The notes below the pieces were generated by a model. It saw only the letters and a program-made list of their open reading frames with translations, was not told where the DNA came from and did no database searches. Made by a program: the position numbers and the translations under genes. Below, in pieces: positions 5,710-57,076 of a stretch of DNA of 64,000 nt (within the stretch, counting starts at the first letter, position 1; every line of letters begins with the position of its first letter). This stretch comes from an uncultured virus (IMG/VR IMGVR_UViG_3300021431_000114) (Duplodnaviria > Heunggongvirae > Uroviricota > Caudoviricetes): the IMG/VR virus record IMGVR_UViG_3300021431_000114, positions 1 through 64,000 of that record. One strand, 5' to 3'.

Positions 5710-6117
5710 ATGACACAAAAAGAATTACTAAAGTCGGACGAGTTCCGCAAGCAGTTGGAAAGCAACATTGCACAGTTTGAAAACCGTCCTGCACTGCCAG
5801 CAGGGCAGAAGTACAAGCGCACACCCTACGACGAGCTTAAGGACAAAGGGATGCTGACGTTCCGCGAGCTTCGCAAGGAGTACGTGCGCATATTGGCAAA
5901 GGACAGCACGCTTTCCAGCAGCCAGCGCAAGGCAGTCAAGGACATCGTAAACGGTGCGCTGTTTGCTGCATACAGCGAAATAGTAAAACGCGAAAGGCAG
6001 ACGGAAGCCCAGAAGCAGGCAGAGCAGAAGCACGACGCACAGCAGCTTGCAGCGGGCATTGCTCCGCAGACCAACGCTGTTGTTCCTAAGCGGAAGCGAA
6101 AGAAAAAGGAAGCGTAA
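5710..6117 (+). CDS. hypothetical protein
   Basis: 135-aa ORF ending just before a terminator. Confidence 0.7.
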   Translation: MTQKELLKSDEFRKQLESNIAQFENRPALPAGQKYKRTPYDELKDKGMLTFRELRKEYVRILAKDSTLSSSQRKAVKDIVNGALFAAYSEIVKRERQTEAQKQAEQKHDAQQLAAGIAPQTNAVVPKRKRKKKEA

Positions 6118-6125
6118 AAATAAGG

Positions 6126-6174
6126 AGCGGACAGTGCAAATGGCAACACTGTCCGCTTTATTTTGTTCTTTTTT
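6126..6174. terminator. intrinsic terminator between convergent operons
   Basis: AGCGGACAGTG(6126-6136)/CACTGTCCGCT(6147-6157) 11-bp stem followed by a T-rich tract; A-tract on the other side. Confidence 0.75.
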
Positions 6175-35294: not shown

Positions 35295-35331
35295 TTATTA
35301 GGTTTATTGCAAAAAACTTAATAACTTTGCC
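35295..35331 (+). promoter_or_regulatory. early promoter P1: TTATTAGGTTT-N16-TAACTTTGCC
   Basis: same boxes and spacing at 42815 and 49322; Bacteroidota -7 consensus. Confidence 0.85.
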
Positions 35332-35377
35332 CTTGTAAACGACAAACAACAGTTTAACAACTTAAAAAGAAACGACA

Positions 35378-35797
35378 ATGTTACAGAGCGAATTTACAAC
35401 GAGAACAAAGGTACACGTAAGCGCAGAGGAATACGCGCACATTGAAGCTGTGTACATGGCAAGCGACGTTGACAAGGATGAGTTTTGCCGCTTGTGGGTG
35501 CTGATGAACAAGGAGCGCGTAGCACGCTCAAAGGAAGAAGCGAAGCAGCAGGCAGCGGAGCAGTCAAGGCGCGAGAGCCTTTGGCGCATTGTTGAACGCT
35601 ACGACGGCGCTGATTGGGAAACATGCTGCAAGCGTGCCGACGACGTGCTGACCGACAAGCAGAAGCAGCTTGTACAAAGTGCAGGCATTGAACTTAGCGA
35701 GCTGCATATAGAGCCGTTCTTCGGACACGAAGTAAGAGACTACAAGCAGCTGGGTACGGTAATCTACGAGCTTAAGAAATACTTAAAAGCAGCATAA
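35378..35797 (+). CDS. hypothetical phage protein
   Basis: first gene after P1; ACGACAATG start; YMASDVDKDEFC motif. Confidence 0.8.
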   Translation: MLQSEFTTRTKVHVSAEEYAHIEAVYMASDVDKDEFCRLWVLMNKERVARSKEEAKQQAAEQSRRESLWRIVERYDGADWETCCKRADDVLTDKQKQLVQSAGIELSELHIEPFFGHEVRDYKQLGTVIYELKKYLKAA

Positions 35798-36015: not shown

Positions 36016-36330
36016 ATGGAAGTAACGACAACGATGGTTTTGTTCCAGCTTGACAAGGCGCAAGTTGAGACACGCACGGACAAGGCAGTGCTGCTTGCAC
36101 TTGTCAGCGACGAGCAGGAAAGCAGCACAGTAAAGGAGTGGGTGCCGCTTTCCAAGATTGAGATTGAGGAAAGCCGTAGCGACAGCAACAAAGTGGACTG
36201 CATCATGCCCAAGTGGCTGTACTACAAAAAGGAAGTGCTGCCGCAGTACACAACGGTAAGACAGGAGTTCATCGTAACAAGCTACGCAGACAAGTACGAG
36301 CTGCTGGCAGAAGCCTACAGACAACAGTAA
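36016..36330 (+). CDS. hypothetical protein
   Basis: TDKAVLL...WVPLSKI...MPKWLY motifs; start moved to ATG 36016. Confidence 0.65.
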   Translation: MEVTTTMVLFQLDKAQVETRTDKAVLLALVSDEQESSTVKEWVPLSKIEIEESRSDSNKVDCIMPKWLYYKKEVLPQYTTVRQEFIVTSYADKYELLAEAYRQQ

Positions 36331-36379
36331 CAACATTTCAGTAACAACTTAGTGTATAACAATTAAAATCGTAACGACA

Positions 36380-37366
36380 ATGAAAATCAGTAACACATTT
36401 GGCGCACAGCCGCAGGTAATGGAAGCTGCACCCGTAGCAGCAGTACAGGAAGTACGCAACGAAAACCAGTTCTTTGACTTCGAGAAAGCAAAGGTGCAGA
36501 CGTTGACGTTGGAACAGCTTAAGCGTACCAACATCGAGAATCGCGGTGACGATCGCAGCAAGCCGCACGGCATCTACCACTTTGAGCTTATCCAGCAGGT
36601 GCTTGACTTAGCAGCACAGCACGGCTACGATGCAGAGGTGTACGACTTGTTTGCAACGAACAACCGGGACAAGCAGGCAAACGGTGTCTCACTGTTCCCC
36701 GAGCTGGAAGCAAAGTACGGCGAGCGTGCTATTGAAGCACACGCGCTTCGCAGGGTGTACGCCAACGTGCGACTTAAGAACTTCGACACGCCCGAGCTGA
36801 CAACAAACCTTGCTATCAGCTACACGCAGAAAGGCATACAAGTGGGCTTCGGCAGCATGGTTAAGGTGTGCCACAATCAGAACATCATGGGCAGCGGACA
36901 GTTCGTCAGCGACTACTCAACGGGTGCTTTCCGCTACGCCAAGGGCAGCAAGGAAAAGACGAATCTTGAAGGCATTATGCAAACGATTGGCGGCTGGCTG
37001 ACAAGCGCGGAGCACATCTTCATCACGGAGCAGGAAACAATCGAGCGCATGAAGCACAGCGTGCTGACGGCAGAGCAGATTTACACAGTGCTGGGCATCC
37101 TTGTTACGCTGCGTGTTACTTACGACACGGAGAACAAGAAAATCCGCAACCAGCAGAACGGTGTCTATCCGCTGAATGGAATGCAGATTAACAAGTTCAC
37201 GGAGCTGCTGCTGTTGAAGCAGAAGGAGCAGGGAATGATTACTGCCTGGGATTTCTACAACAGCGCAACAGAGCTGTACAAGCCTACGATAGTTGACCAG
37301 AACATGATACTGCCGCAGGTGCAGCGCATGAATCAGTTCATGCAGGAATACGAGCTTTACGTGTAA
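36380..37366 (+). CDS. DUF932-like protein
   Basis: GIQVGFGSMVKVCHNQ and TAWDFYNSATELYK motifs. Confidence 0.75.
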   Translation: MKISNTFGAQPQVMEAAPVAAVQEVRNENQFFDFEKAKVQTLTLEQLKRTNIENRGDDRSKPHGIYHFELIQQVLDLAAQHGYDAEVYDLFATNNRDKQANGVSLFPELEAKYGERAIEAHALRRVYANVRLKNFDTPELTTNLAISYTQKGIQVGFGSMVKVCHNQNIMGSGQFVSDYSTGAFRYAKGSKEKTNLEGIMQTIGGWLTSAEHIFITEQETIERMKHSVLTAEQIYTVLGILVTLRVTYDTENKKIRNQQNGVYPLNGMQINKFTELLLLKQKEQGMITAWDFYNSATELYKPTIVDQNMILPQVQRMNQFMQEYELYV

Positions 37367-42814: not shown

Positions 42815-42851
42815 TTATTAGGTTTTTGCAAATAAAGTCCGTAACTTTGCC
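42815..42851 (+). promoter_or_regulatory. early promoter P2: TTATTAGGTTT-N16-TAACTTTGCC
   Basis: same boxes and spacing as P1 and P3. Confidence 0.85.
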
Positions 42852-42894
42852 CTACGACAAACGACATAAGTTTAACTTTTTAATAGATACGACA

Positions 42895-43620
42895 ATGACA
42901 CAGAAAGAAAAATTGTACTTCGAGTACTTGAAATTCCAAAACAGCATTTACGCTGTAAAGGGCGAGACAGTCAAGCAGATTAACTTGGACGAGTTCAGCA
43001 AGACAGGCCGCTTCATGGTGGAAGCAAGAAACTCCAAGGTTTACGAGTTGCAGGAAAGCATCAAGTACGCAAAACAGCAGCTTGAACGCTACGAGCAGGA
43101 AGCAAAGCGCGACGCATGGTTTGAGACCGCAGAGGGCATGCAGTTCAAGCAGGACATGGAAACGCGCATTGAAGCACTTAAGGAGCGCATGCGGGCTGCA
43201 TACTTTGTAGCATTTGAGCACACACGCGACGAAGTGCGCAAGCTGCTGGGCGCACATGTTGACGTAACCAACTTCGGTGTGGGTTGCATGACGATAGGTA
43301 TTGTTAAGAGCTATGACAAGGACGGCAACGCAGAAGAACTTTTCGGACACACGTTTGAGGTGTGGTTCGGGCGTGACGTATTCAAGCCGTTGCGCTGGGA
43401 ACTTAACTACGGAACGATTGGCGGTTTCGACCTTGACACGGACATCACACGCACACAGCACCTTGTAGCTCTTAGCACATTCGCAGCCAACAAAACGGTT
43501 GTCCCTGCACTGCGTGACTACCTGCACGCTTTTGTACAGCAGCACTACGAAATGCGCGAGCAGCTGGATAAGCTGGAGCGCGAGCTTAACAACCCCACTG
43601 CACTAACCAACAAGGAGTAA
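42895..43620 (+). CDS. hypothetical protein
   Basis: start at ACGACAATG (42895), after P2. Confidence 0.75.
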   Translation: MTQKEKLYFEYLKFQNSIYAVKGETVKQINLDEFSKTGRFMVEARNSKVYELQESIKYAKQQLERYEQEAKRDAWFETAEGMQFKQDMETRIEALKERMRAAYFVAFEHTRDEVRKLLGAHVDVTNFGVGCMTIGIVKSYDKDGNAEELFGHTFEVWFGRDVFKPLRWELNYGTIGGFDLDTDITRTQHLVALSTFAANKTVVPALRDYLHAFVQQHYEMREQLDKLERELNNPTALTNKE

Positions 43621-44712: not shown

Positions 44713-45225
44713 ATGGCACAGCAGAAGATGATTGGCTCGGAAGCGTTTGTGGAGCGCATACAAGCGTTTTTGGACGAGCTGGCTGCAACGGACGAAGCGT
44801 TTGCAGCAAAGCTTAAGAAAGACAAGCGCACGGTGCAGGACTGCGCAAACTGGATGATTGAAAAGCTTGCACAGGACTTCCGCGACACGGGCAAAATGGG
44901 CTACGACGACAGCGAGATTTACGGGCTCGCCCTGCATTTCTTCGACGAGCCGGAACTGAAAGCAAAGGGCAACCTTAACTTTCAAGGGCTGATAATGAGC
45001 AACCGCCCTCGCACGCAGGAGTACAAGCCGCGTGAGCTGACGGACGAGGAAAAAGCAGGCTTGGATGCAGCAGCACGCGAGCAGTACAAGCAGGAGCAAG
45101 TGCGCAAGCTGCGCGAAGCGGAGCAGAAAGCACAGGAAGCAGAGCAAAGACGCTTGGAGCGCATCAAGGAGAAGCGACAGAAGCAGGCAGAACAGTATGC
45201 ACAACCCTCATTATTCGACATGTAG
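44713..45225 (+). CDS. PcfK-like (AcrIIA9-related) protein
   Basis: DEAFA..L....RTVQDC...GYDDSEIYGLALHFFDE and QPSLFD end; upstream of PcfJ. Confidence 0.8.
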   Translation: MAQQKMIGSEAFVERIQAFLDELAATDEAFAAKLKKDKRTVQDCANWMIEKLAQDFRDTGKMGYDDSEIYGLALHFFDEPELKAKGNLNFQGLIMSNRPRTQEYKPRELTDEEKAGLDAAAREQYKQEQVRKLREAEQKAQEAEQRRLERIKEKRQKQAEQYAQPSLFDM

Positions 45226-45227
45226 CT

Positions 45228-45755
45228 ATGACACAGATACAAGTTTACCAAGAAATGTATGTTGACGCATTAAAGCGTCGCATCAGCGCATCAGTGGACG
45301 AAGAGAATGCGCTGAAAAACATCTTTGGCTTAAAGATTGATTATGTTGGAAAGCAAGTTGCTGATAAGGTTTACAATCTTGACGGCTGCTTGTACAAAGT
45401 AGTGTGCATGAAATACTGTGACTGCTGGAGCTACGATAACGGTGTCAAATTTGAGTTGAACTTCGCCATTGTACCACAAAGCGTGCGTGAAGCTTTCACC
45501 TTGACAAAAACGGAGCGCAAGCTGCTTGACGCTTACGAGCGTGACGTTTTTGAGAAATTCACGAAAAAGCCTTCAAAAGAAAACAGTGTGCTTTTGGATA
45601 AATTGCACCGGGATTTCTACTGGCCTTTGTACAACTGCAAGAACTGTATAACGCCTGTTAAAGACTTCGCATGGATGTACAAACTTGAAGAAATTACATG
45701 CAGCACGTTTGCAACGAACGGAATGATTTACGAGAACGGAAAAACTCTTTGGTAA
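45228..45755 (+). CDS. hypothetical protein
   Basis: 175-aa ORF between pcfK-like and pcfJ-like genes. Confidence 0.65.
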   Translation: MTQIQVYQEMYVDALKRRISASVDEENALKNIFGLKIDYVGKQVADKVYNLDGCLYKVVCMKYCDCWSYDNGVKFELNFAIVPQSVREAFTLTKTERKLLDAYERDVFEKFTKKPSKENSVLLDKLHRDFYWPLYNCKNCITPVKDFAWMYKLEEITCSTFATNGMIYENGKTLW

Positions 45756-45761
45756 GCAGCT

Positions 45762-47072
45762 ATGAAGCCACATACAAAAGCACATAATGAGGTGATGCAG
45801 CTGCGCGAACAGCTGCGCCCTCTTACAGCAAAGGAAAGATGCTGGGCGTTGAAGCACGTGCCGTACTTTACGGGTCATGCAAGCTACGGCAAGGTAACGT
45901 GCCAGCACTGCGGACACGTCTTTGAGCACAACGGCAAGGACGAGCAGCGTTGCCCACACTGCAAACGGACGCTGCACATCACGCAGACGAAGAAGGAAAG
46001 TGCGGACGATATAGAGTGCTTCGTGCTGATGGACGCAGTGGGGCAGTGGCAGGTGATGCGCTACTTGCACGTCATTACACAAAGCAGGAAGCGCGGCACG
46101 AAAACATCAACGCGCATTTCGGAAATCATGCAGCGTTGGATCGGCGCGGATGGCAAGTACGTTATAGTTGCCAAGCAGCGCAACATCTGCTTCTACAACA
46201 TACGCTGGGTGTATGACAGCGATATGCAGATACACGGCATACCTGACGAGCACTACATCAACCGCATAGACCACGAGGGCTTTTGCACGTACACCGTGCG
46301 CAAGTGGCACGCTGCGCTGCAACACGTGCAGTACGACTTCGACAAGCTGCAAATGCCGCTGTTCAACTTTGTGCGTGCTTTCATGTCAAGCTCCTACGCG
46401 GAAACGCTGTTCAAGCAAGGACGCTTGCAGCTGTTCAAGTACTGTGCGGAAAACAACTTGTTTGGCAGCAAGGAGTTCGTTGCAGCCATGCGTATTGCGC
46501 TGCGTCACAAGTACGACATTGAAAAGGACGTTACACTTTGGTGTGACTACGTGCAAACGCTGCTGAAGCTCAAAAAGGACGTGCATAATGCTGTGTACGT
46601 CTGCCCGAAGGACTTGCACGCTGCGCATGACTTGTACTTACAGCGTTGGCGCAAGATTGAAGCGGAAAAGCAGCGCAAGCTTGACGAAAAGCGCAAGCTT
46701 GAAAAGGTGCTGCGTGCAAAGATGGATAACGAAGCGTACATCAAGCGCATGCAGCCGTTCCTTGGGCTGCTGTTTACGGACGGCAAGGGCATTTCGCTTC
46801 ATGTCCTGCGCGACGTTTCGGAGTTCGCAGAAGAAGCCGCCGTTATGCAGCACTGCGTTTTTGATAACGCGTATTACAAAAAGCCGCAGTCGCTTATTAT
46901 GAGTGCGCAGGTAAACGGGACACGCACGGAAACGGTGGAAGTGTCGCTGACTGATTTTACTATACAGCAGTCACGCGGGCACAGGAACTACCCGAGCAAG
47001 TACCACAAGCGCATTGTACAGCTTGTAAGGAATAGCTTGCCAATGATTAAGCAGGCTGCGTGTGCAGGGTGA
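45762..47072 (+). CDS. PcfJ-like protein
   Basis: CQHCG/CPHC zinc ribbon, WCDY, CPKDLHAAHD, MQHCVF, TETVEV, QSRG motifs. Confidence 0.88.
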   Translation: MKPHTKAHNEVMQLREQLRPLTAKERCWALKHVPYFTGHASYGKVTCQHCGHVFEHNGKDEQRCPHCKRTLHITQTKKESADDIECFVLMDAVGQWQVMRYLHVITQSRKRGTKTSTRISEIMQRWIGADGKYVIVAKQRNICFYNIRWVYDSDMQIHGIPDEHYINRIDHEGFCTYTVRKWHAALQHVQYDFDKLQMPLFNFVRAFMSSSYAETLFKQGRLQLFKYCAENNLFGSKEFVAAMRIALRHKYDIEKDVTLWCDYVQTLLKLKKDVHNAVYVCPKDLHAAHDLYLQRWRKIEAEKQRKLDEKRKLEKVLRAKMDNEAYIKRMQPFLGLLFTDGKGISLHVLRDVSEFAEEAAVMQHCVFDNAYYKKPQSLIMSAQVNGTRTETVEVSLTDFTIQQSRGHRNYPSKYHKRIVQLVRNSLPMIKQAACAG

Positions 47073-48563: not shown

Positions 48564-48595
48564 GCAGGTACAGAAGATTACTGTACCTGCTTTTT
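48564..48595 (+). terminator. intrinsic terminator
   Basis: GCAGGTACAG/CTGTACCTGC 10-bp stem + TTTTT. Confidence 0.8.
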
Positions 48596-49321: not shown

Positions 49322-49358
49322 TTATTAGGTTTGTATAGTTTTTCTTAATAACTTTGCC
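49322..49358 (+). promoter_or_regulatory. early promoter P3: TTATTAGGTTT-N16-TAACTTTGCC
   Basis: same boxes and spacing as P1 and P2. Confidence 0.85.
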
Positions 49359-49386
49359 GTACAGTTTAACAAAAAGCGATACGACA

Positions 49387-49743
49387 ATGAAACAAGTATT
49401 TAAGAACATCGACGAAGAATTGGACGCTTACAGCGCATTTCTTGACAGCAGCGAGTATGGAAAAACAGTGAAGCAGATACGTGAAGCCTGCAAGGATATG
49501 TTTTACACGTACAAAGGCGAGTTTGGGCTGGAGAGCAGCGAGCTTACTGACTACGGCACGATGTACAGCTGGGGCTTTAACGGCAATGAAAAGTGCTTTG
49601 CAGAAAACTTAACGGGCTTCCTTGCAGAGTATGACATTGTACTGCGCAAGAAGGACGGCACGGCTGACGAGCGCAACAGCAACCACAACGATGTAGCAAA
49701 GCTGCTTAACAAGCTGTACCAGCTGGCAGAACAGACAAAGTAA
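49387..49743 (+). CDS. hypothetical protein
   Basis: ACGACAATG start after P3. Confidence 0.75.
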   Translation: MKQVFKNIDEELDAYSAFLDSSEYGKTVKQIREACKDMFYTYKGEFGLESSELTDYGTMYSWGFNGNEKCFAENLTGFLAEYDIVLRKKDGTADERNSNHNDVAKLLNKLYQLAEQTK

Positions 49744-50645: not shown

Positions 50646-50819
50646 ATGGCAAGACTAAAGTACGTTCCAGTAGAACAGCGCGACGCATACTTGCAGGGCA
50701 AGCAGTACGCAAGCATCAGCTGTACGGGCAGCTTGCACGGCATGAAAAAGCGTTACGGTTGGGACAAGGCAAAGGAGATTTTCAAAAGTGGTAACTATTA
50801 CTACGCAGTATGGAACTAA
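50646..50819 (+). CDS. small hypothetical protein (57 aa)
   Basis: read by hand: MARLKYVPVEQRDAYL...GNYYYAVWN*. Confidence 0.55.
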   Translation: MARLKYVPVEQRDAYLQGKQYASISCTGSLHGMKKRYGWDKAKEIFKSGNYYYAVWN

Positions 50820-50838
50820 CAAAAAAAACAGTACGACG

Positions 50839-51195
50839 ATGAAAAGAATAGACGAATTAAAGAAAGGCGACGTTGTTAGCTGCATCAGCAGAGACCCAAG
50901 GAACGGCAACGTTGAAGCAACGGTAAAGAGCATTGGCAGCAAGTACATCACTGTGGATGGTGTGAATAAGTCTTACTCCAAGTACGAGCGCGAAACGCTG
51001 GTGTGCGCTGATTGGTCAAGCTGGGAACTGTTTCCCGGTACGCTGGACGAATATGCACAGCACCTTAAAGACGAGCATGAGCGCGAAGAAACTATCAGGC
51101 GCATAAACCGACAGCTGCAAAAGCTGGAATTGAGCCAGCTGAAAAGCTTGACAGAAGCATTACAGAACATCTTAACACCACAAAGCAAAGGATGA
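50839..51195 (+). CDS. hypothetical protein (beta-barrel N-terminus)
   Basis: LKKGDVV...ATVKSIGSKYITV; start moved to 50839. Confidence 0.65.
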   Translation: MKRIDELKKGDVVSCISRDPRNGNVEATVKSIGSKYITVDGVNKSYSKYERETLVCADWSSWELFPGTLDEYAQHLKDEHEREETIRRINRQLQKLELSQLKSLTEALQNILTPQSKG

Positions 51196-52046: not shown

Positions 52047-52241
52047 ATGAAAGAATACGAAATTGAAGTAAAGCTGTCATTCACGGGCTGTGTAACGGTG
52101 AACGCTGACAGCAAGATTGAAGCCCTGCAAATCGTGCGAGACAACTTCCGCGCTATGCTTGGGCAGTGCGAGGACAATGGGTGTGACGCGATTGTTGATT
52201 GGGATATAGACCCGCACAACAGCGCGATAGTTGCGAAATAA
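52047..52241 (+). CDS. small hypothetical protein
   Basis: MKEYEIEV...VTVNADSKIEA. Confidence 0.6.
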   Translation: MKEYEIEVKLSFTGCVTVNADSKIEALQIVRDNFRAMLGQCEDNGCDAIVDWDIDPHNSAIVAK

Positions 52242-52325
52242 CGTGGTTTGCCGCGCTGCTGCTCGCTTTTAATTCCGTTTCCGCGTAGTTATTCGGGCAG
52301 CAGCGTGTGCGTGCCTTACAGCGAC

Positions 52326-52431
52326 AAAAAAAGCCGCTGTGCAAGTACGACAAACACACAGCGGCCACGACATTTCAGTTTAACTTTGTGTAAAAAACTG
52401 CACGAGCAAGCACAGTCGATACAACAATGTC
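52326..52431 (-). ncRNA. predicted ~105-nt small RNA antisense to early-gene leaders
   Basis: minus-strand TACCTTTG box (52443-52436); perfect 9-bp terminator stem 52333-52341/52357-52365 with U7; no ORF. Confidence 0.55.
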
Positions 52432-52540
52432 AGTGCAAAGGTAGCATTTTTAACCCAATAAATAGCTCAAAAGTGCAGAATTTTGGGTAATTTTGCAGAA
52501 AAATAAGTAAACAAAGGATATTTTAAGACGTTTCAGTATT

Positions 52541-53293
52541 ATGTTAGGAGCAATTATAGGCGACATTGTAGGGTCGCGCTTTGAGTTCAACAACACGAAC
52601 AAGTACGACTTCGGGGAGCTGTTTACGCACGAATGCAGCTTCACGGATGATACAATCTGCACCGTAGCAATAGCGGATGCACTGCTTAACGGCAGCAAGG
52701 ACTATAAAGGAAGCCTGCTTAAGTGGTGCAGGAAGTACAATGGTCTTTGCTATGGTCGTGCTTTTAAGGCATGGATAGACAATCCAGTACCTTACAACAG
52801 CTTTGGCAATGGTGCTGCAATGCGCGTCAGCCCGGTAGCATGGGCGTACAGTACAGCAGCGGAAGTCACCAGCGAATCTATTGCTACAGCAAACGTGTCT
52901 CATAACCACCCAGAGGGCATAAAGGGAGCAATGGCAGCTGCGCTTGCTGTGTACTACCTACGCACGACAAAAAAGCGGGAGTGCCTGGACGTTATAGAGG
53001 GTATGTTCTATGACCGTAAGGCAAAGTATAAGCGTGGCGTGTTTGACACGACTTGTCAAGGAACAGTACCTATCGCACTGCGCATCGTGCATGACAGCAA
53101 GGACTTTGAGGACGCAATAAGGCTGTCAATGGCTTGGGGCGGCGACAGCGACACCTTGGGCGCAATAGTCGGCTCAATGGCAGAAGCGTTGTACGGCATA
53201 CCCGTTGGCATACAGCGTTACGCAAAAAGCTATCTGCCCGACGATATGCTGCAAGTTGTGAACATGTTCTATAAGAAATTCATACTGCTGTAG
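52541..53293 (+). CDS. ADP-ribosylglycohydrolase (DraG/ARH family)
   Basis: GAIIGDIVG, FTDDT, SFGNGAAMR, SHNHP, GGDSDTLGAIVG motifs; TAATTTTGC promoter box at 52488. Confidence 0.95.
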   Translation: MLGAIIGDIVGSRFEFNNTNKYDFGELFTHECSFTDDTICTVAIADALLNGSKDYKGSLLKWCRKYNGLCYGRAFKAWIDNPVPYNSFGNGAAMRVSPVAWAYSTAAEVTSESIATANVSHNHPEGIKGAMAAALAVYYLRTTKKRECLDVIEGMFYDRKAKYKRGVFDTTCQGTVPIALRIVHDSKDFEDAIRLSMAWGGDSDTLGAIVGSMAEALYGIPVGIQRYAKSYLPDDMLQVVNMFYKKFILL

Positions 53294-53884: not shown

Positions 53885-54107
53885 GAAAAAAAAGTTTTCG
53901 ATGTTTAACGATCCGTCCTTCTCTAATTTTACGGACAAGGATTGGAAAAAATGGAAAAGGAACGAGCACAAGACACCTGACGGCACGCCGCCTTTTATCT
54001 GTGAGAAGTGCATGCTTTGCACAGAAGATGATACTTGTGAAATTCTCACGCAGGCACAGCAGCAAGCCCGCATAAACTTGGGCGAGTGCGAAGATAAAAT
54101 AGAGTAG
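53877..54107 (+). CDS. small Cys-containing protein
   Basis: 76 aa, CEKC..C....C; convergent with the MuF-ART gene. Confidence 0.6.
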   Translation: MAKKKKFSMFNDPSFSNFTDKDWKKWKRNEHKTPDGTPPFICEKCMLCTEDDTCEILTQAQQQARINLGECEDKIE

Positions 54108-54135
54108 GTACTTGTATGTACCTGCTCTATTTATT
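54099..54135. terminator. bidirectional terminator hairpin
   Basis: ATAGAGTAGGTAC/GTACCTGCTCTAT stem between convergent stop codons. Confidence 0.65.
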
Positions 54136-57076
54136 TCACACGACATTTTATCTCTACGATTTTACGCGTGCTGTTGTACTCCACTTCCAGAAGCTCTAAG
54201 TGTGTGTTGCGTCCTAAAACGCATTCACTCTCGTAATCGTTTCTTGTTACATATACAGGTGTTCCTTGCGGTATTTCAATTTGCAACTGAAATTTTCTGC
54301 TTGTGAATACGTTCATGCGTGCATCTGTTGATACAGACATGAAACCTGCATCTGCTTCCAGCTCCTTCAGCGGAAGTGCTTTAAGCTTTGTTGCAATTTC
54401 ATTGACGCTGAGCTTGGTTTCGGAATCGACTGGAAGTGTACCACCAAACAAAGGATTTACGCCGTCAAAAGTAAGGTTACGTACTATTTTTATCGGGAAC
54501 GGCAAACTGTTTCTTGCGATAACAGCGTCCAGTGTCTCAATGGTTTTTATATCATCATCATTTAGCATGCCGCCGTACAAATCCATTGCAAACTGCACGT
54601 TCTTATTGCCTTTAAGCGTACCGACAATCTTGTTTTTTCCTTTGCCATGCACGTCGCGCAAAGCTCCATTTATTTTGAAGCTGTTGCTCGTGCCAATGTA
54701 GCCGCCGGGAGAGTGTGCCCACGTCTGCGTCTTCTCTGTATTTGTGATGTCACAAATTTTTGCCAATACCATATGCTGCTTAGACGTAAGATACACACAG
54801 CCGTCCACAATGTTGATGTCGGCAGCGGAAAGACTTTCTCCATGCTGCGTGAACAGTCGTACCATTGCATCTTTAATCTCCGTGTCAGTCATTTTTTGCG
54901 TGGGCATGGCTGCTGCACTTGCCTTTGGCGTCGCACTTGCCGAACTTTTAGCAGCCCTTAAGCGTGCTTCTGCTTCCAGCCGCTTAACGCGTTGCTTTAA
55001 GTCTGCGGCTTTTGCACGTACTTCCACAAGGCTTGCGTCGTTGTCCTTAAGCATGCCCTGCAATTCAACACCGAGATTAGAAACTATCTTACTTCGCGTT
55101 GTAGCTGCAAACTGCAATTCATGCTGTATGCTTGCACTTATTGCATTGAACTCTATTCGCTTGTTCACGATGTCAAGCCTATGCTGTAATGCGGCTTTTG
55201 AAATCTCTTTCGTTTTGTACTTCGTGCCGTTGACAACGTTAATTTCACGCTCCAAGCGACCTTTGAGGAACTGCAATGAAGCGTCTGTATCAAAGTCCCA
55301 CGTCCAGCGGTTGAATGTACGCTGTATGGCTGCTTGTGCGCCTTGCACTTCTGCTGACGTAAACTGCTTAAACCACGCAAGGGCGTTTGGTGTAAACTGT
55401 TCCAGCTGTGCTGCCTGCTTCTTGACTTCCGCAATCTGCTTTGCAAGCGTCTTGGTAAGGTTGGCAGCTTCCTTGAGCTTGTACTGCAACAGCAGGTCAC
55501 GCAACAGCCCTGCGCTGGCTGACGTTTCAACGAAAGCAAGCTTGTCGGCAACAGCAAGCACGTTGCGCCCGGTGTTGAAGATAAGCGCGTTCTGCTTCCT
55601 GCGCTCGTTCCATGTGCTTTGCACAGCTGCGTCGTTACGCTTGGCGTGACGTGCATCTGCAAGCTGCTGTATGCGTATGCCGTTCCAAATGTCCGCGTAT
55701 GCAGTCTTGATTGCGTCCTTGTTTCCGCTGCTAATCGCGTTTTGCAACGCGGTAAGGCGTTTTTGCAGCACGGGCGAGCTACTATTCAGGCCAGCATTAC
55801 TTATTGCCTTGTGCGCCCTTTTTAGCTGGTATTCGTTCCAACGCTTCTGCGCTGCTGCATCATCACGCTGCGCGTGCCGCCACACCTTTGCTTCTTCGGG
55901 AGTACGCCCGCGTGTCTGCAAGCCCATGTCCTGCAACTTCTCCTTGTCGAAGATAGTACGCAGGTACTTCGGGTTATCACGGAACACGTAGGCAAGCGTG
56001 CCGCGCTCACCTGCACGCTGGATCTGCTCGCGGTGCTGCTGCAAGTAGTCCTTGTACTGCTGCGGAACGTCCTTAACAGTACCCTTGCACTCAAAGTTTG
56101 ACACGTCCTCGCCTGCACGTTTCCGACGGTGGTACTCGCGTATTTCCTCACGGCTGGCAGTAATCGCGCTTGCAGCACACATGCACTGCGGATGGAAGCC
56201 GCTAAACTTGAAGTCCTTCGGGTAGTCGCCCCATAACTCGTCGCAAATATCGGGTTCGGGATGCTGAGGACTGCCCCAAATGCGTATGCCAATGACAAAC
56301 GGCTCGTTTTTCCAACGCTCGCAGTTCGCGTAATGGTACGACATGTTGATTTCCGTGCGCATCAAGCGGAACGTGTTGCGGTAACTGCTGCGGTACACAC
56401 CCTGCCCTACTTCTTCCAGCGGTGCTTCAATAAAGCGTACTTTGCCTTCCTCGTCAATAATGCGCTTGTGCCACTTCACAACGTCCTTGGCTGCGCCGCC
56501 TTTGGTAATGACCTTGTGATGATAGCGTCTGTACATCATGTCCGGCTCTTGCAGCTGCCCGTACACCTTACGGGAAAGCTCCACTGCACTTGTGCCCTTT
56601 GCAAGCCCGTCCGTAATGACGTTGCTCATAGCCATTTCAAACTCGCTTTTCGTCTGCTCCGCATAGTTCCACACACGCTGCGACAAGTTCAAGCCCTGCG
56701 GCGTATTCATGCGCTGCGCAAGGAAAGCACTTGCAGCAAGGTTGCGTACCTGCATGATTGCTTCATCGTTGAGCACCGTGTAGCCTTTCAGTGTGCGTGC
56801 ATCCTGCCCGAAAGCAAGCCCTACGCCCGACTGTATGCCGCTTTGCGCGAGCAACAGCTGTTCGCGGACGTACTGACGGAAGATGTCGTTAAGACGCGTC
56901 TTAAGCTCTGGGAAGTTGTCAAACAGAAACAGCGCGTCCTCACTAAGCTTCTGTTCAACGTTGATGCCCAGTGCTGACAGCTGCTTGATAAACTTGCCGT
57001 ACAGCATGCCTATCCGTATGTTGTACTTGGCAAACAGTGCCGTGAGTTCTTTTTGCTGCGCTATGTTTTGAGCCAT
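54131..57076 (-). CDS. MuF/SPP1 gp7-like minor head protein fused to a C-terminal ADP-ribosyltransferase (VIP2-like)
   Basis: RLMRTEINMSY, ICDEL.G.YPKDF.F.GFHPQCMC (MuF); INGALR, IVR, GFMSVS, YESECVL (R-S-E ART); follows portal. Confidence 0.88.
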   Translation of the reverse strand: MAQNIAQQKELTALFAKYNIRIGMLYGKFIKQLSALGINVEQKLSEDALFLFDNFPELKTRLNDIFRQYVREQLLLAQSGIQSGVGLAFGQDARTLKGYTVLNDEAIMQVRNLAASAFLAQRMNTPQGLNLSQRVWNYAEQTKSEFEMAMSNVITDGLAKGTSAVELSRKVYGQLQEPDMMYRRYHHKVITKGGAAKDVVKWHKRIIDEEGKVRFIEAPLEEVGQGVYRSSYRNTFRLMRTEINMSYHYANCERWKNEPFVIGIRIWGSPQHPEPDICDELWGDYPKDFKFSGFHPQCMCAASAITASREEIREYHRRKRAGEDVSNFECKGTVKDVPQQYKDYLQQHREQIQRAGERGTLAYVFRDNPKYLRTIFDKEKLQDMGLQTRGRTPEEAKVWRHAQRDDAAAQKRWNEYQLKRAHKAISNAGLNSSSPVLQKRLTALQNAISSGNKDAIKTAYADIWNGIRIQQLADARHAKRNDAAVQSTWNERRKQNALIFNTGRNVLAVADKLAFVETSASAGLLRDLLLQYKLKEAANLTKTLAKQIAEVKKQAAQLEQFTPNALAWFKQFTSAEVQGAQAAIQRTFNRWTWDFDTDASLQFLKGRLEREINVVNGTKYKTKEISKAALQHRLDIVNKRIEFNAISASIQHELQFAATTRSKIVSNLGVELQGMLKDNDASLVEVRAKAADLKQRVKRLEAEARLRAAKSSASATPKASAAAMPTQKMTDTEIKDAMVRLFTQHGESLSAADINIVDGCVYLTSKQHMVLAKICDITNTEKTQTWAHSPGGYIGTSNSFKINGALRDVHGKGKNKIVGTLKGNKNVQFAMDLYGGMLNDDDIKTIETLDAVIARNSLPFPIKIVRNLTFDGVNPLFGGTLPVDSETKLSVNEIATKLKALPLKELEADAGFMSVSTDARMNVFTSRKFQLQIEIPQGTPVYVTRNDYESECVLGRNTHLELLEVEYNSTRKIVEIKCRVK

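Follow-up and report, generated by a model that had tools for sequence, protein, structure and literature searches.

An intergenic stretch in the early region of an uncultured phage, positions 52326-52443, can be read in two directions. On the plus strand it resembles the leaders of the phage's own early operons, and on the minus strand it carries a promoter box, predicted hairpins and a run of U. The question that it raises is whether one of these readings is the functional one and, if an RNA is made from the locus, what that RNA might act on. Here we analyse the locus in its genome, compare it with the copies found in related phages, and weigh the alternatives to a small RNA that would act on the early operons.

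The phage, the unit and the early leaders

The phage is known from a 76,140-bp IMG/VR virus record (G000), estimated to be 96% complete, the first 64 kb of which form the window, i.e. the whole 64,000-nt stretch of DNA analysed. Its gene content is that of a tailed phage, with terminase, portal, head and tape-measure genes on the minus strand and a block of small plus-strand genes, the early region, from about 35 to 54 kb of the window. By a gene neighbouring the locus, the nearest named phages are Porphyromonas and Bacteroides phages. A lysogeny module lies outside the window, and its features, in coordinates of the full record, are these:

66082-67254, minus strand: tyrosine integrase (Arm-DNA-bind_5, Phage_int_SAM_5 and Phage_integrase domains).
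67526-68152, minus strand: Peptidase_S24 LexA/CI-like protein.
68486-68683, plus strand: HTH_17 protein.
68227 (plus strand) and 68265 (minus strand): face-to-face TAACTTTGC boxes between the genes of the module (66082-68683).

Since it carries an integrase and an S24 CI-like gene, the phage is temperate and has a candidate for a conventional protein repressor; it is a phage of the Bacteroidota. This bears on an earlier note on the same DNA, which had read the locus as a predicted antisense RNA that could act as an RNA-based lysis/lysogeny or early-to-late switch, adding that no protein repressor was visible in the window. The integrase, CI-like and HTH_17 genes lie just beyond the 64-kb window, and the CI-like gene in the same genome leaves a switch in place of a protein repressor unsupported, so that this part of the proposal was rejected. 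The other part, a minus-strand small RNA gene with unpaired parts complementary to the early leaders and to the ACGACAATG start context, stood up to the comparisons below.

The features of the unit, in the 5' to 3' direction of the minus strand, and those of its downstream neighbour are the following:

52443-52436 (52443-52435 with the following C), minus strand: -7 promoter box TACCTTTG of the predicted small RNA.
52430-52419, minus strand: ACAUUGUUGUAU, the predicted 5' end, which is complementary, save for a single G-U pair, to the (GAU)ACGACAAUG start regions.
52416-52397, minus strand: hairpin 1, a 7-bp stem ACUGUGC/GUGCAGU with the loop UUGCUC, followed by a U-rich stretch at 52396-52391.
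52387-52366, minus strand: 22-nt linker AAAGUUAAACUGAAAUGUCGUG, predicted to be single-stranded, complementary to the leader motifs CAGUUUAAC(UUU) and ACGACAU.
52365-52357 and 52341-52333, minus strand: GC-rich 9-bp terminator stem GCCGCUGUG/CACAGCGGC around a 15-nt loop.
52332-52326, minus strand: U7 run directly 3' of the terminator stem.
52541-53293, plus strand: ADP-ribosylglycohydrolase gene, the downstream neighbour of the unit.
52488-52496, plus strand: divergent -7 box TAATTTTGC of the glycohydrolase gene, 44 nt from the box of the small RNA.

The box, the stem and the U7 run are thus where the earlier note had placed them. The unit is intergenic, between the genes 52047-52241 and 52541-53293, and overlaps no annotated ORF; the mechanical ORFs across it are not conserved, and no reading frame is kept because the variants in related phages differ by indels of 1, 2 and 3 nt, in agreement with the earlier view that the unit is non-coding. 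From the position of the box we infer that the small RNA starts near 52430, and no clear -33 TTTG was seen in the sequence at the usual distance from that box. The linker and the terminator loop are predicted to be unpaired in all variants, the unpaired probability of the linker being mostly 0.6-0.99 in the three variants, and in the predicted fold part of the 5' block pairs with the stretch that follows hairpin 1. A further helix that had been proposed to close the structure, GACATT/AATGTC, is possible, but it is absent from the minimum-energy folds and shows no covariation. A search of RNA libraries gave two runs that matched small shares of a 6-kb stretch, and the contigs of four runs were of low depth, patchy and without strand or end information.

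Both ends of the unit can be placed among the signals of the genome as a whole. The motif TAnnTTTGC occurs in 32 copies, against 9.35 +/- 3.1 in shuffled sequence (about 3.4-fold), and many of the copies stand ahead of genes; the motif marks the predicted promoters of this phage, which belong to the Bacteroidota type. When strong terminators were sought with a custom scan, 11 matches at about nine sites in the genome came up. Those in the early region (35-54 kb) are at the plus-strand operon ends 48564 and 54100, together with the one in the unit, which is the sole strong early-region terminator to face against the flanking genes. The late minus-strand operon has a terminator of its own at 54100-54136. 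Strong hairpin terminators stand at the convergent gene junctions 6116-6167, 48564-48595 and 54100-54136, and the first and the last of these look bidirectional.

When the unit is read on the plus strand, it contains TACGACAAAC (52346-52355), ACGACAT (52367-52373), AGTTTAACTTT (52377-52387) and GATACAACAATG (52418-52429), as had been noted earlier. These are blocks of the early leaders, the features of which are as follows:

35297-35380, plus strand: P1 promoter-leader unit (ACGACAAAC, CAGTTTAAC, ACGACAATG), with -7 box and leader at 35322-35380; predicted target, rank 2 of 108.
42817-42897, plus strand: P2 promoter-leader unit, with -7 box and leader at 42842-42897; the closest copy of the locus and a predicted target, rank 1 of 108.
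49324-49389, plus strand: P3 promoter-leader unit (CAGTTTAAC, GATACGACAATG), with -7 box and leader at 49349-49389; predicted target, rank 3 of 108.
36332-36382, plus strand: leader-like intergenic stretch ACAACATTTCAGTAAC ... ACGACAATG ahead of the gene 36380-37366; possible further target, rank 4 of 108.

P1, P2 and P3 are nearly identical, each precedes a plus-strand operon, and each has the order TTATTAGGTTT, TAACTTTGCC, (ACGACAAAC), C/AAGTTTAAC, (GAT)ACGACAATG. The same blocks as in the unit occur in the same order in the P2 leader (42853-42897), a correspondence that the earlier note had described and that we could reproduce. Also, five plus-strand copies of TATAGT[AG]A were observed, four of which (35287, 49314 and, in the full record, 68192 and 68222) lie just upstream of P1, P3 and the immunity-region promoters; the element may be an operator or upstream element common to these promoters.

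Conservation and strand of the unit

The relatives available for comparison are G001, a complete genome of 86,989 bp with terminal repeats; G002, an 86-kb twin; L305, a 54-kb metagenome contig; and L306, a 1.2-kb contig. The unit is 100% identical over 161 nt in G002, and L306 is nearly identical to the window, so the four further copies reduce to three distinct variants overall. BLAST homology between G000 and G001 at the locus is confined to 52323-52443 of the window, at 85%. Among the three variants the unit is 84-87% identical, compared with 68-78% for the coding sequence of the adjacent gene, in which 145 of 290 third codon positions (50%) are identical, and 33-71% for the spacer. The upstream flank in G000 has no similarity to the relatives, and the upstream gene differs between G000 and G001/L305. 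Conservation therefore starts at the U-run and stops at the -7 box. In all variants the unit and the glycohydrolase gene's TAATTTTGC promoter stand back to back, and the TAATTTTGC box is conserved in G001 and L305.

Within this island the conservation is uneven. The columns invariant across the three variants comprise 12 of 12 in the 5' end, 20 of 22 in the linker and 13 of 13 in the core of the terminator loop, and the variable positions fall in the stem arms (7 of 9 and 6 of 9 invariant), in the stretch after hairpin 1 (3 of 9) and in the junctions. Thirteen invariant nucleotides inside an unusually large terminator loop are hard to explain by termination alone.

Scans of viral contigs with an 18-mer and a 20-mer pattern each returned two stretches, both from the two known phages. 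Looser patterns gave mostly chance matches, with two homologues among 52 stretches in one scan and, in another, family members as the only homologues among at least 108 stretches. A metagenome scan returned six stretches, three of them homologues (one being the G001 sequence itself) and three chance matches, and a scan of species genomes with one pattern gave two chance matches and no prophage copy. Furthermore, of 11 loci with relatives of the glycohydrolase, ten (41-55% identity) lack the unit upstream, and the remaining one belongs to the same phage, the G002 twin. When a covariance model of the unit was used to look for a second copy, it retrieved the four known copies and weak matches of 21.2, 17.7 and 15.9 bits; these weak matches are leader-like sense sequences and not genes, the 21.2-bit match being the stretch 36286-36408.

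Several observations point to the minus strand. Over the four sequences, the 16 minus-strand pairs give 63 cells, every one of them a standard pair. In the G001 terminator, two stem pairs carry compensatory changes, from G-C to C-G and from U-A to C-G, and a further U-A has become U-G; hairpin 1 contains two G-U pairs, one U-G of which becomes U-A in G001. Covariation in related phages had been put forward as a check on the antisense reading, and it is found in the two compensatory pairs of the terminator stem; with three distinct variants only, it rests on these 2 pairs, and 28 of 500 column shuffles equalled the covariation measures. A U-run follows the terminator in every variant (U7, U6 and U5), equivalent on the plus strand to an A-run that precedes it. 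The box reads TACCTTTG, TACCTTTG and TATCTTTG in the three variants, such that the TAnnTTTG consensus is kept and the sole change falls at an unconstrained n position. The conservation island, the strand-specific pairs and the kept box together give good support to the prediction that the minus strand encodes a small RNA, with a -7 box and a terminator of its own.

These same features have to be set against the possibility that there is no functional minus-strand RNA, and that the locus is a plus-strand paralogue of an early leader: a decayed promoter-leader copy, or a set of DNA sites for a leader-binding protein, with a hairpin that merely ends or pauses plus-strand transcription. The order and orientation of the blocks are as in the leaders, and plus-strand folding is as far from shuffled sequence as minus-strand folding (z-scores of -2.39 and -2.33, respectively). 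There is a short ATG frame after GATACAACAATG in which the two differences among the variants are synonymous; they lie at an n of TAnnTTTG and immediately ahead of the predicted start site, positions at which an RNA gene would be unaffected too. Upstream of the unit, G000 has TAGTTATTCGG, which faintly recalls the TTATTAGG element of P1-P3, but this element is absent in G001 and L305, where the space is coding. The plus-strand box TAACTTTG at 52381, on which the earlier note had founded a similar alternative of its own, becomes TAACTTGT in L305 and is thereby lost. Moreover, reading the plus strand turns the G-U pairs into C-A mismatches, two among the seven pairs of hairpin 1 and one in the G001 terminator; both hairpins need G-U pairs that exist on the minus strand only. 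The A-runs are on the wrong side for a plus-strand terminator, and conservation stops exactly at the minus-strand -7 box and U-run. We consider this plus-strand alternative, as a leader relic or as a set of protein sites, distinctly unlikely.

The short frame itself (52418-52446, plus strand) has five codons, ATG TCA GTG CAA AGG TAG, stands after a leader-like start context, and runs on to 19 codons in G001. The promoter box on the opposite strand probably gives rise to it as a by-product.

A second alternative accepts the minus-strand RNA and restricts it to cis action. The RNA would be perfectly complementary to read-through transcripts heading toward the glycohydrolase gene and would insulate the two modules, through convergent transcription or cleavage of the duplex, the leader-like blocks being relics of the duplication that created the locus. 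The unit does lie between two plus-strand units, always back to back with the glycohydrolase promoter. The upstream gene on the plus strand stops 4-5 nt short of the unit in G001 and L305, where the stop codon abuts the A-run and a canonical plus-strand terminator is lacking, so that any read-through would match the RNA with perfect complementarity; what follows the hairpin on the plus strand is just CACGACAUUUCAG, a poor U-tract. However, a purely cis-acting antisense RNA needs no particular sequence, yet three blocks, including the loop core, are invariant while the stems and spacers drift. G000, moreover, has a different upstream gene and an extra 85 nt. Insulation in cis as the only role of the RNA is, in our estimation, unlikely.

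The 85-nt stretch specific to G000 (52242-52325) separates its upstream gene from the unit. It holds a 9-bp stem, CGCTGCTGC/GCAGCAGCG, around a 34-nt loop, in addition to the TAGTTATTCGG element.

Complementarity to the early leaders

If the small RNA acts in trans, its most evident partners would be the early leaders. Three blocks of the unit are complements of three leader motifs: ACGACAAAC, CAGUUUAAC and (GAU)ACGACAAUG. The terminator loop contains UGUUUGUCGUACU, the complement of AGUACGACAAACA, and ACGACAAACA at 35339-35348 in the P1 leader is an exact complement of the loop; the predicted target of the 5' part, CGATACGACAATG, is present at 49377-49389, where the duplex would contain one G-U pair. 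Both of these matches had been reported in the earlier note. Predicted duplex energies range from -11.7 to -15.4 kcal/mol for the 5' block on the start regions of P1-P3, and from -11.1 to -18.9 kcal/mol for the linker on the leaders. When the start regions of all called ORFs were ranked by predicted pairing with the RNA, the P2, P1 and P3 genes came 1, 2 and 3 of 108 in G000. G001 has four promoter-leader units, and G002 also has a fourth; in G001 the four leader genes came 1, 3, 4 and 6 of 119. Rank 2 of 119 in G001 was taken by the start region (81104-81144, locus L246) of the gene 81115-82317, which has no P1-type promoter and carries TCAGTACGACAATG and ACATTTCAGTTTA.

The evidence that the similarity between unit and leaders exceeds chance is mixed. 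Added together, the duplex energies of the three blocks with the leaders came to -42.5 and -43.7 kcal/mol in the two phages, values that none of 300 shuffled segment sets matched in either phage. The ordered pair ACGACAAAC..AGTTTAAC, defined from the leaders alone, occurs in just 116 stretches in all of IMG/VR, among which are six promoter-leaders and two small-RNA loci of this phage family. Single blocks of 9-11 nt are at chance level in a 76-kb genome (E 0.4-25). Loose chaining of blocks was not significant, with a P2 match of 27 compared with a shuffle mean of 26 and a maximum of 32, and local alignment with cheap gaps was meaningless (81, the mean of the shuffles being 80.7). Since neither the RNA nor the leaders vary in these blocks, co-variation between the RNA and its targets is not seen.

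The motif matched by the 5' block is itself confined almost entirely to one strand. In G000 the plus strand has nine copies of the 9-mer ACGACAATG and the minus strand none; the corresponding counts in G001 are 11 and 1. Those in G000 are at 35372, 36374, 39940, 42889, 47328, 48286, 49381, 49760 and 50192, and eight of the nine are at early-region gene starts. Given this use of plus-strand starts, the 5' block could reach further early start codons, with one conserved G-U pair. ACGACAATG can also be described as a phage-specific start-region signature with A at -3 and -6.

The predicted pairing also bears on a third alternative, in which the RNA is real but acts mainly on host transcripts or on a protein partner, in the manner of a sponge or decoy, and in which its match to the leaders of its own phage is an accident of its origin. 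Phage small RNAs that act on host mRNAs or host small RNAs are described (PMC12197685), and a candidate protein partner is encoded 1.2 kb upstream of the unit in both phages:

50788-51195 (probable start 50839), plus strand: small protein of 118 aa with a 37.3-bit match to Pfam PF24203 ('Phage ProQ C-terminal-like domain').

On the other side, the phage's own leaders rank extremely high in two phages, and the species-genome scan mentioned above, made with one pattern, found no prophage copy. We regard host or protein partners as the principal targets to be very improbable.

The homologue of the ProQ-C-terminal-like protein in G001 is 32% identical and occupies the same relative place. The AlphaFold model of the protein in the window (pLDDT 76) is a five-stranded barrel with helices; comparison by VIA-align gave just middling Tudor-type matches (Z 4.7-5.4), Foldseek returned nothing at E <= 0.001, and a sequence search of the PDB found no match of note. 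A FinO domain is absent among the 63 ORFs, of about 108 called, that were scanned with Pfam. The protein is a possible RNA-annealing helper.

A possible trans-acting RNA and its relation to known systems

The reading that we prefer is that 52443-52326 on the minus strand is a gene for a small RNA of about 105 nt that acts in trans on the leaders and start regions of the early operons, and to this we give an even chance. Host RNA polymerase would start a few bases after the TAnnTTTG box and stop at the stem-loop and U7. The product would in effect be an early-operon leader read backwards, with two hairpins inserted, whose 5' end, linker and large terminator loop would stay single-stranded. These exposed parts would pair in trans with the P1, P2 and P3 leaders, with the fourth leader in the fuller genomes, and also with other plus-strand start regions that use ACGACAAUG. 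Because the pairing would cover the region of the start codon, it would be expected to lower the translation of the early genes, the stability of their mRNAs, or both, and the RNA would form a second regulatory layer beside the CI-like protein repressor of the phage. What the sequences show is the anatomy of the unit, its conservation, its strand-specific structure and its complementarity to the leaders; that it is transcribed, where its transcript starts, that it pairs in vivo, and in which direction and when it would act are points that we infer.

A more specific form of this proposal would make the RNA a master anti-leader. It would be a copy of an early leader, now read from the opposite strand, in which three exposed modules (the 5' end, the linker and the oversized terminator loop) clamp the three-motif leader of all early operons as well as the plus-strand-only ACGACAAUG start context. 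The Tudor/ProQ-C-terminal-like protein may help the annealing, and the outcome would be early-gene shut-off or prophage silencing beside the CI-like repressor. No regulatory RNA would have been described before it for phages of the phylum. We offer this fuller version tentatively, and lean against its holding in every part.

Antisense control of early genes by phages is an already known kind of regulation, and the unit can be compared with several such systems. Rfam gave no match at the gathering score in the window, and at E up to 10 just three unrelated sub-threshold matches (PyrC leader, mir-460 and IRES_Bip). The closest systems in logic are the CI RNA of the satellite phage P4 and the c4 RNA of phages P1 and P7 (the Rfam C4 family), which control early genes of their own phage by pairing with short sites repeated in early leaders, the c4 RNA with repeated target sites in the early leaders of its phages, and in which RNA and targets are related by repetition within the phage. 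The targets of the unit are likewise repeated leader sites; in silico, its three blocks match three leaders in G000 and four in G001. The unit has, however, no homology to CI or c4 in sequence or structure. Those RNAs are cut from a sense leader transcript, whereas the unit is on the other strand from all early genes and carries a -7 box of its own, as judged from sequence only. It is predicted to act on three or four operons that lie dispersed, and on internal start regions as well, and the phage that carries it also encodes a CI-like protein. In P4, an antisense-RNA-based decision system has been described (PMC3632133).

The sar RNA of P22 and the OOP RNA of lambda, two short antisense RNAs of phages, each have a promoter and a terminator to themselves and lower the expression of a regulatory early gene (PMC12197685). 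The unit is like them in having its own predicted promoter and terminator. They overlap their target gene with perfect complementarity in cis, whereas the unit overlaps no annotated gene and matches distant leaders through blocks of 9-13 nt; an overlap would exist for it only with read-through plus-strand transcripts.

In its architecture the unit is close to small RNAs of the host phylum. Intergenic small RNAs of Bacteroides have a start site behind a -7 TAnnTTTG box and an intrinsic terminator, and one of them, GibS, pairs via a single-stranded seed with translation initiation regions, in a phylum without Hfq (PMC7366714). Like the GibS-type small RNAs of Bacteroides thetaiotaomicron, the unit has a -7 TAnnTTTG box and an intrinsic terminator, is intergenic and non-coding, and has a conserved seed that is predicted to be single-stranded. 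It differs from GibS in being phage-encoded and unrelated in sequence, in having three complementary regions, one of them in the terminator loop, and in that its predicted targets are the phage's own genes. Additionally, a parallel can be drawn with FinP of F-like plasmids, which, with a chaperone belonging to the FinO/ProQ family, is antisense to a 5' leader including the start region (PMC9977716). As with FinP and FinO, the unit is antisense to leaders on a mobile element and has a candidate RNA-binding helper encoded nearby. FinP, by contrast, is a cis antisense RNA to traJ, and the neighbour of the unit has a ProQ C-terminal (Tudor-like) domain only and no FinO domain.

In searches of openly accessible full texts, no regulatory RNA of a Bacteroidota phage came up, and a 2025 review of phage small RNAs (PMC12197685) holds no word starting with 'Bacteroid'. 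The Bacteroidota carry out riboregulation without Hfq, in ways of which little is understood. Should the RNA be produced and behave as proposed, it would be a compact and testable case of one RNA governing several operons via a shared modular leader; it would show how a regulator can arise from its own target, and the anti-leader/leader pair could become a portable regulatory part for gut Bacteroidota. Were it to act in cis only, the unit would be an ordinary antisense insulator.

Two minor observations concern the genes around the unit. The early region (44713-47072 and 52047-52241) encodes proteins resembling PcfK, PcfJ and, weakly, DpnD/PcfM, which elsewhere are known as a gene set of conjugative elements. 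Near the glycohydrolase gene, the minus strand encodes a 981-aa head-morphogenesis protein (54131-57076), the N-terminal part of which matches the PHROG 'Bxa ADP-ribosyl transferase'; the glycohydrolase and this Bxa-like protein may form a transferase/glycohydrolase pairing.
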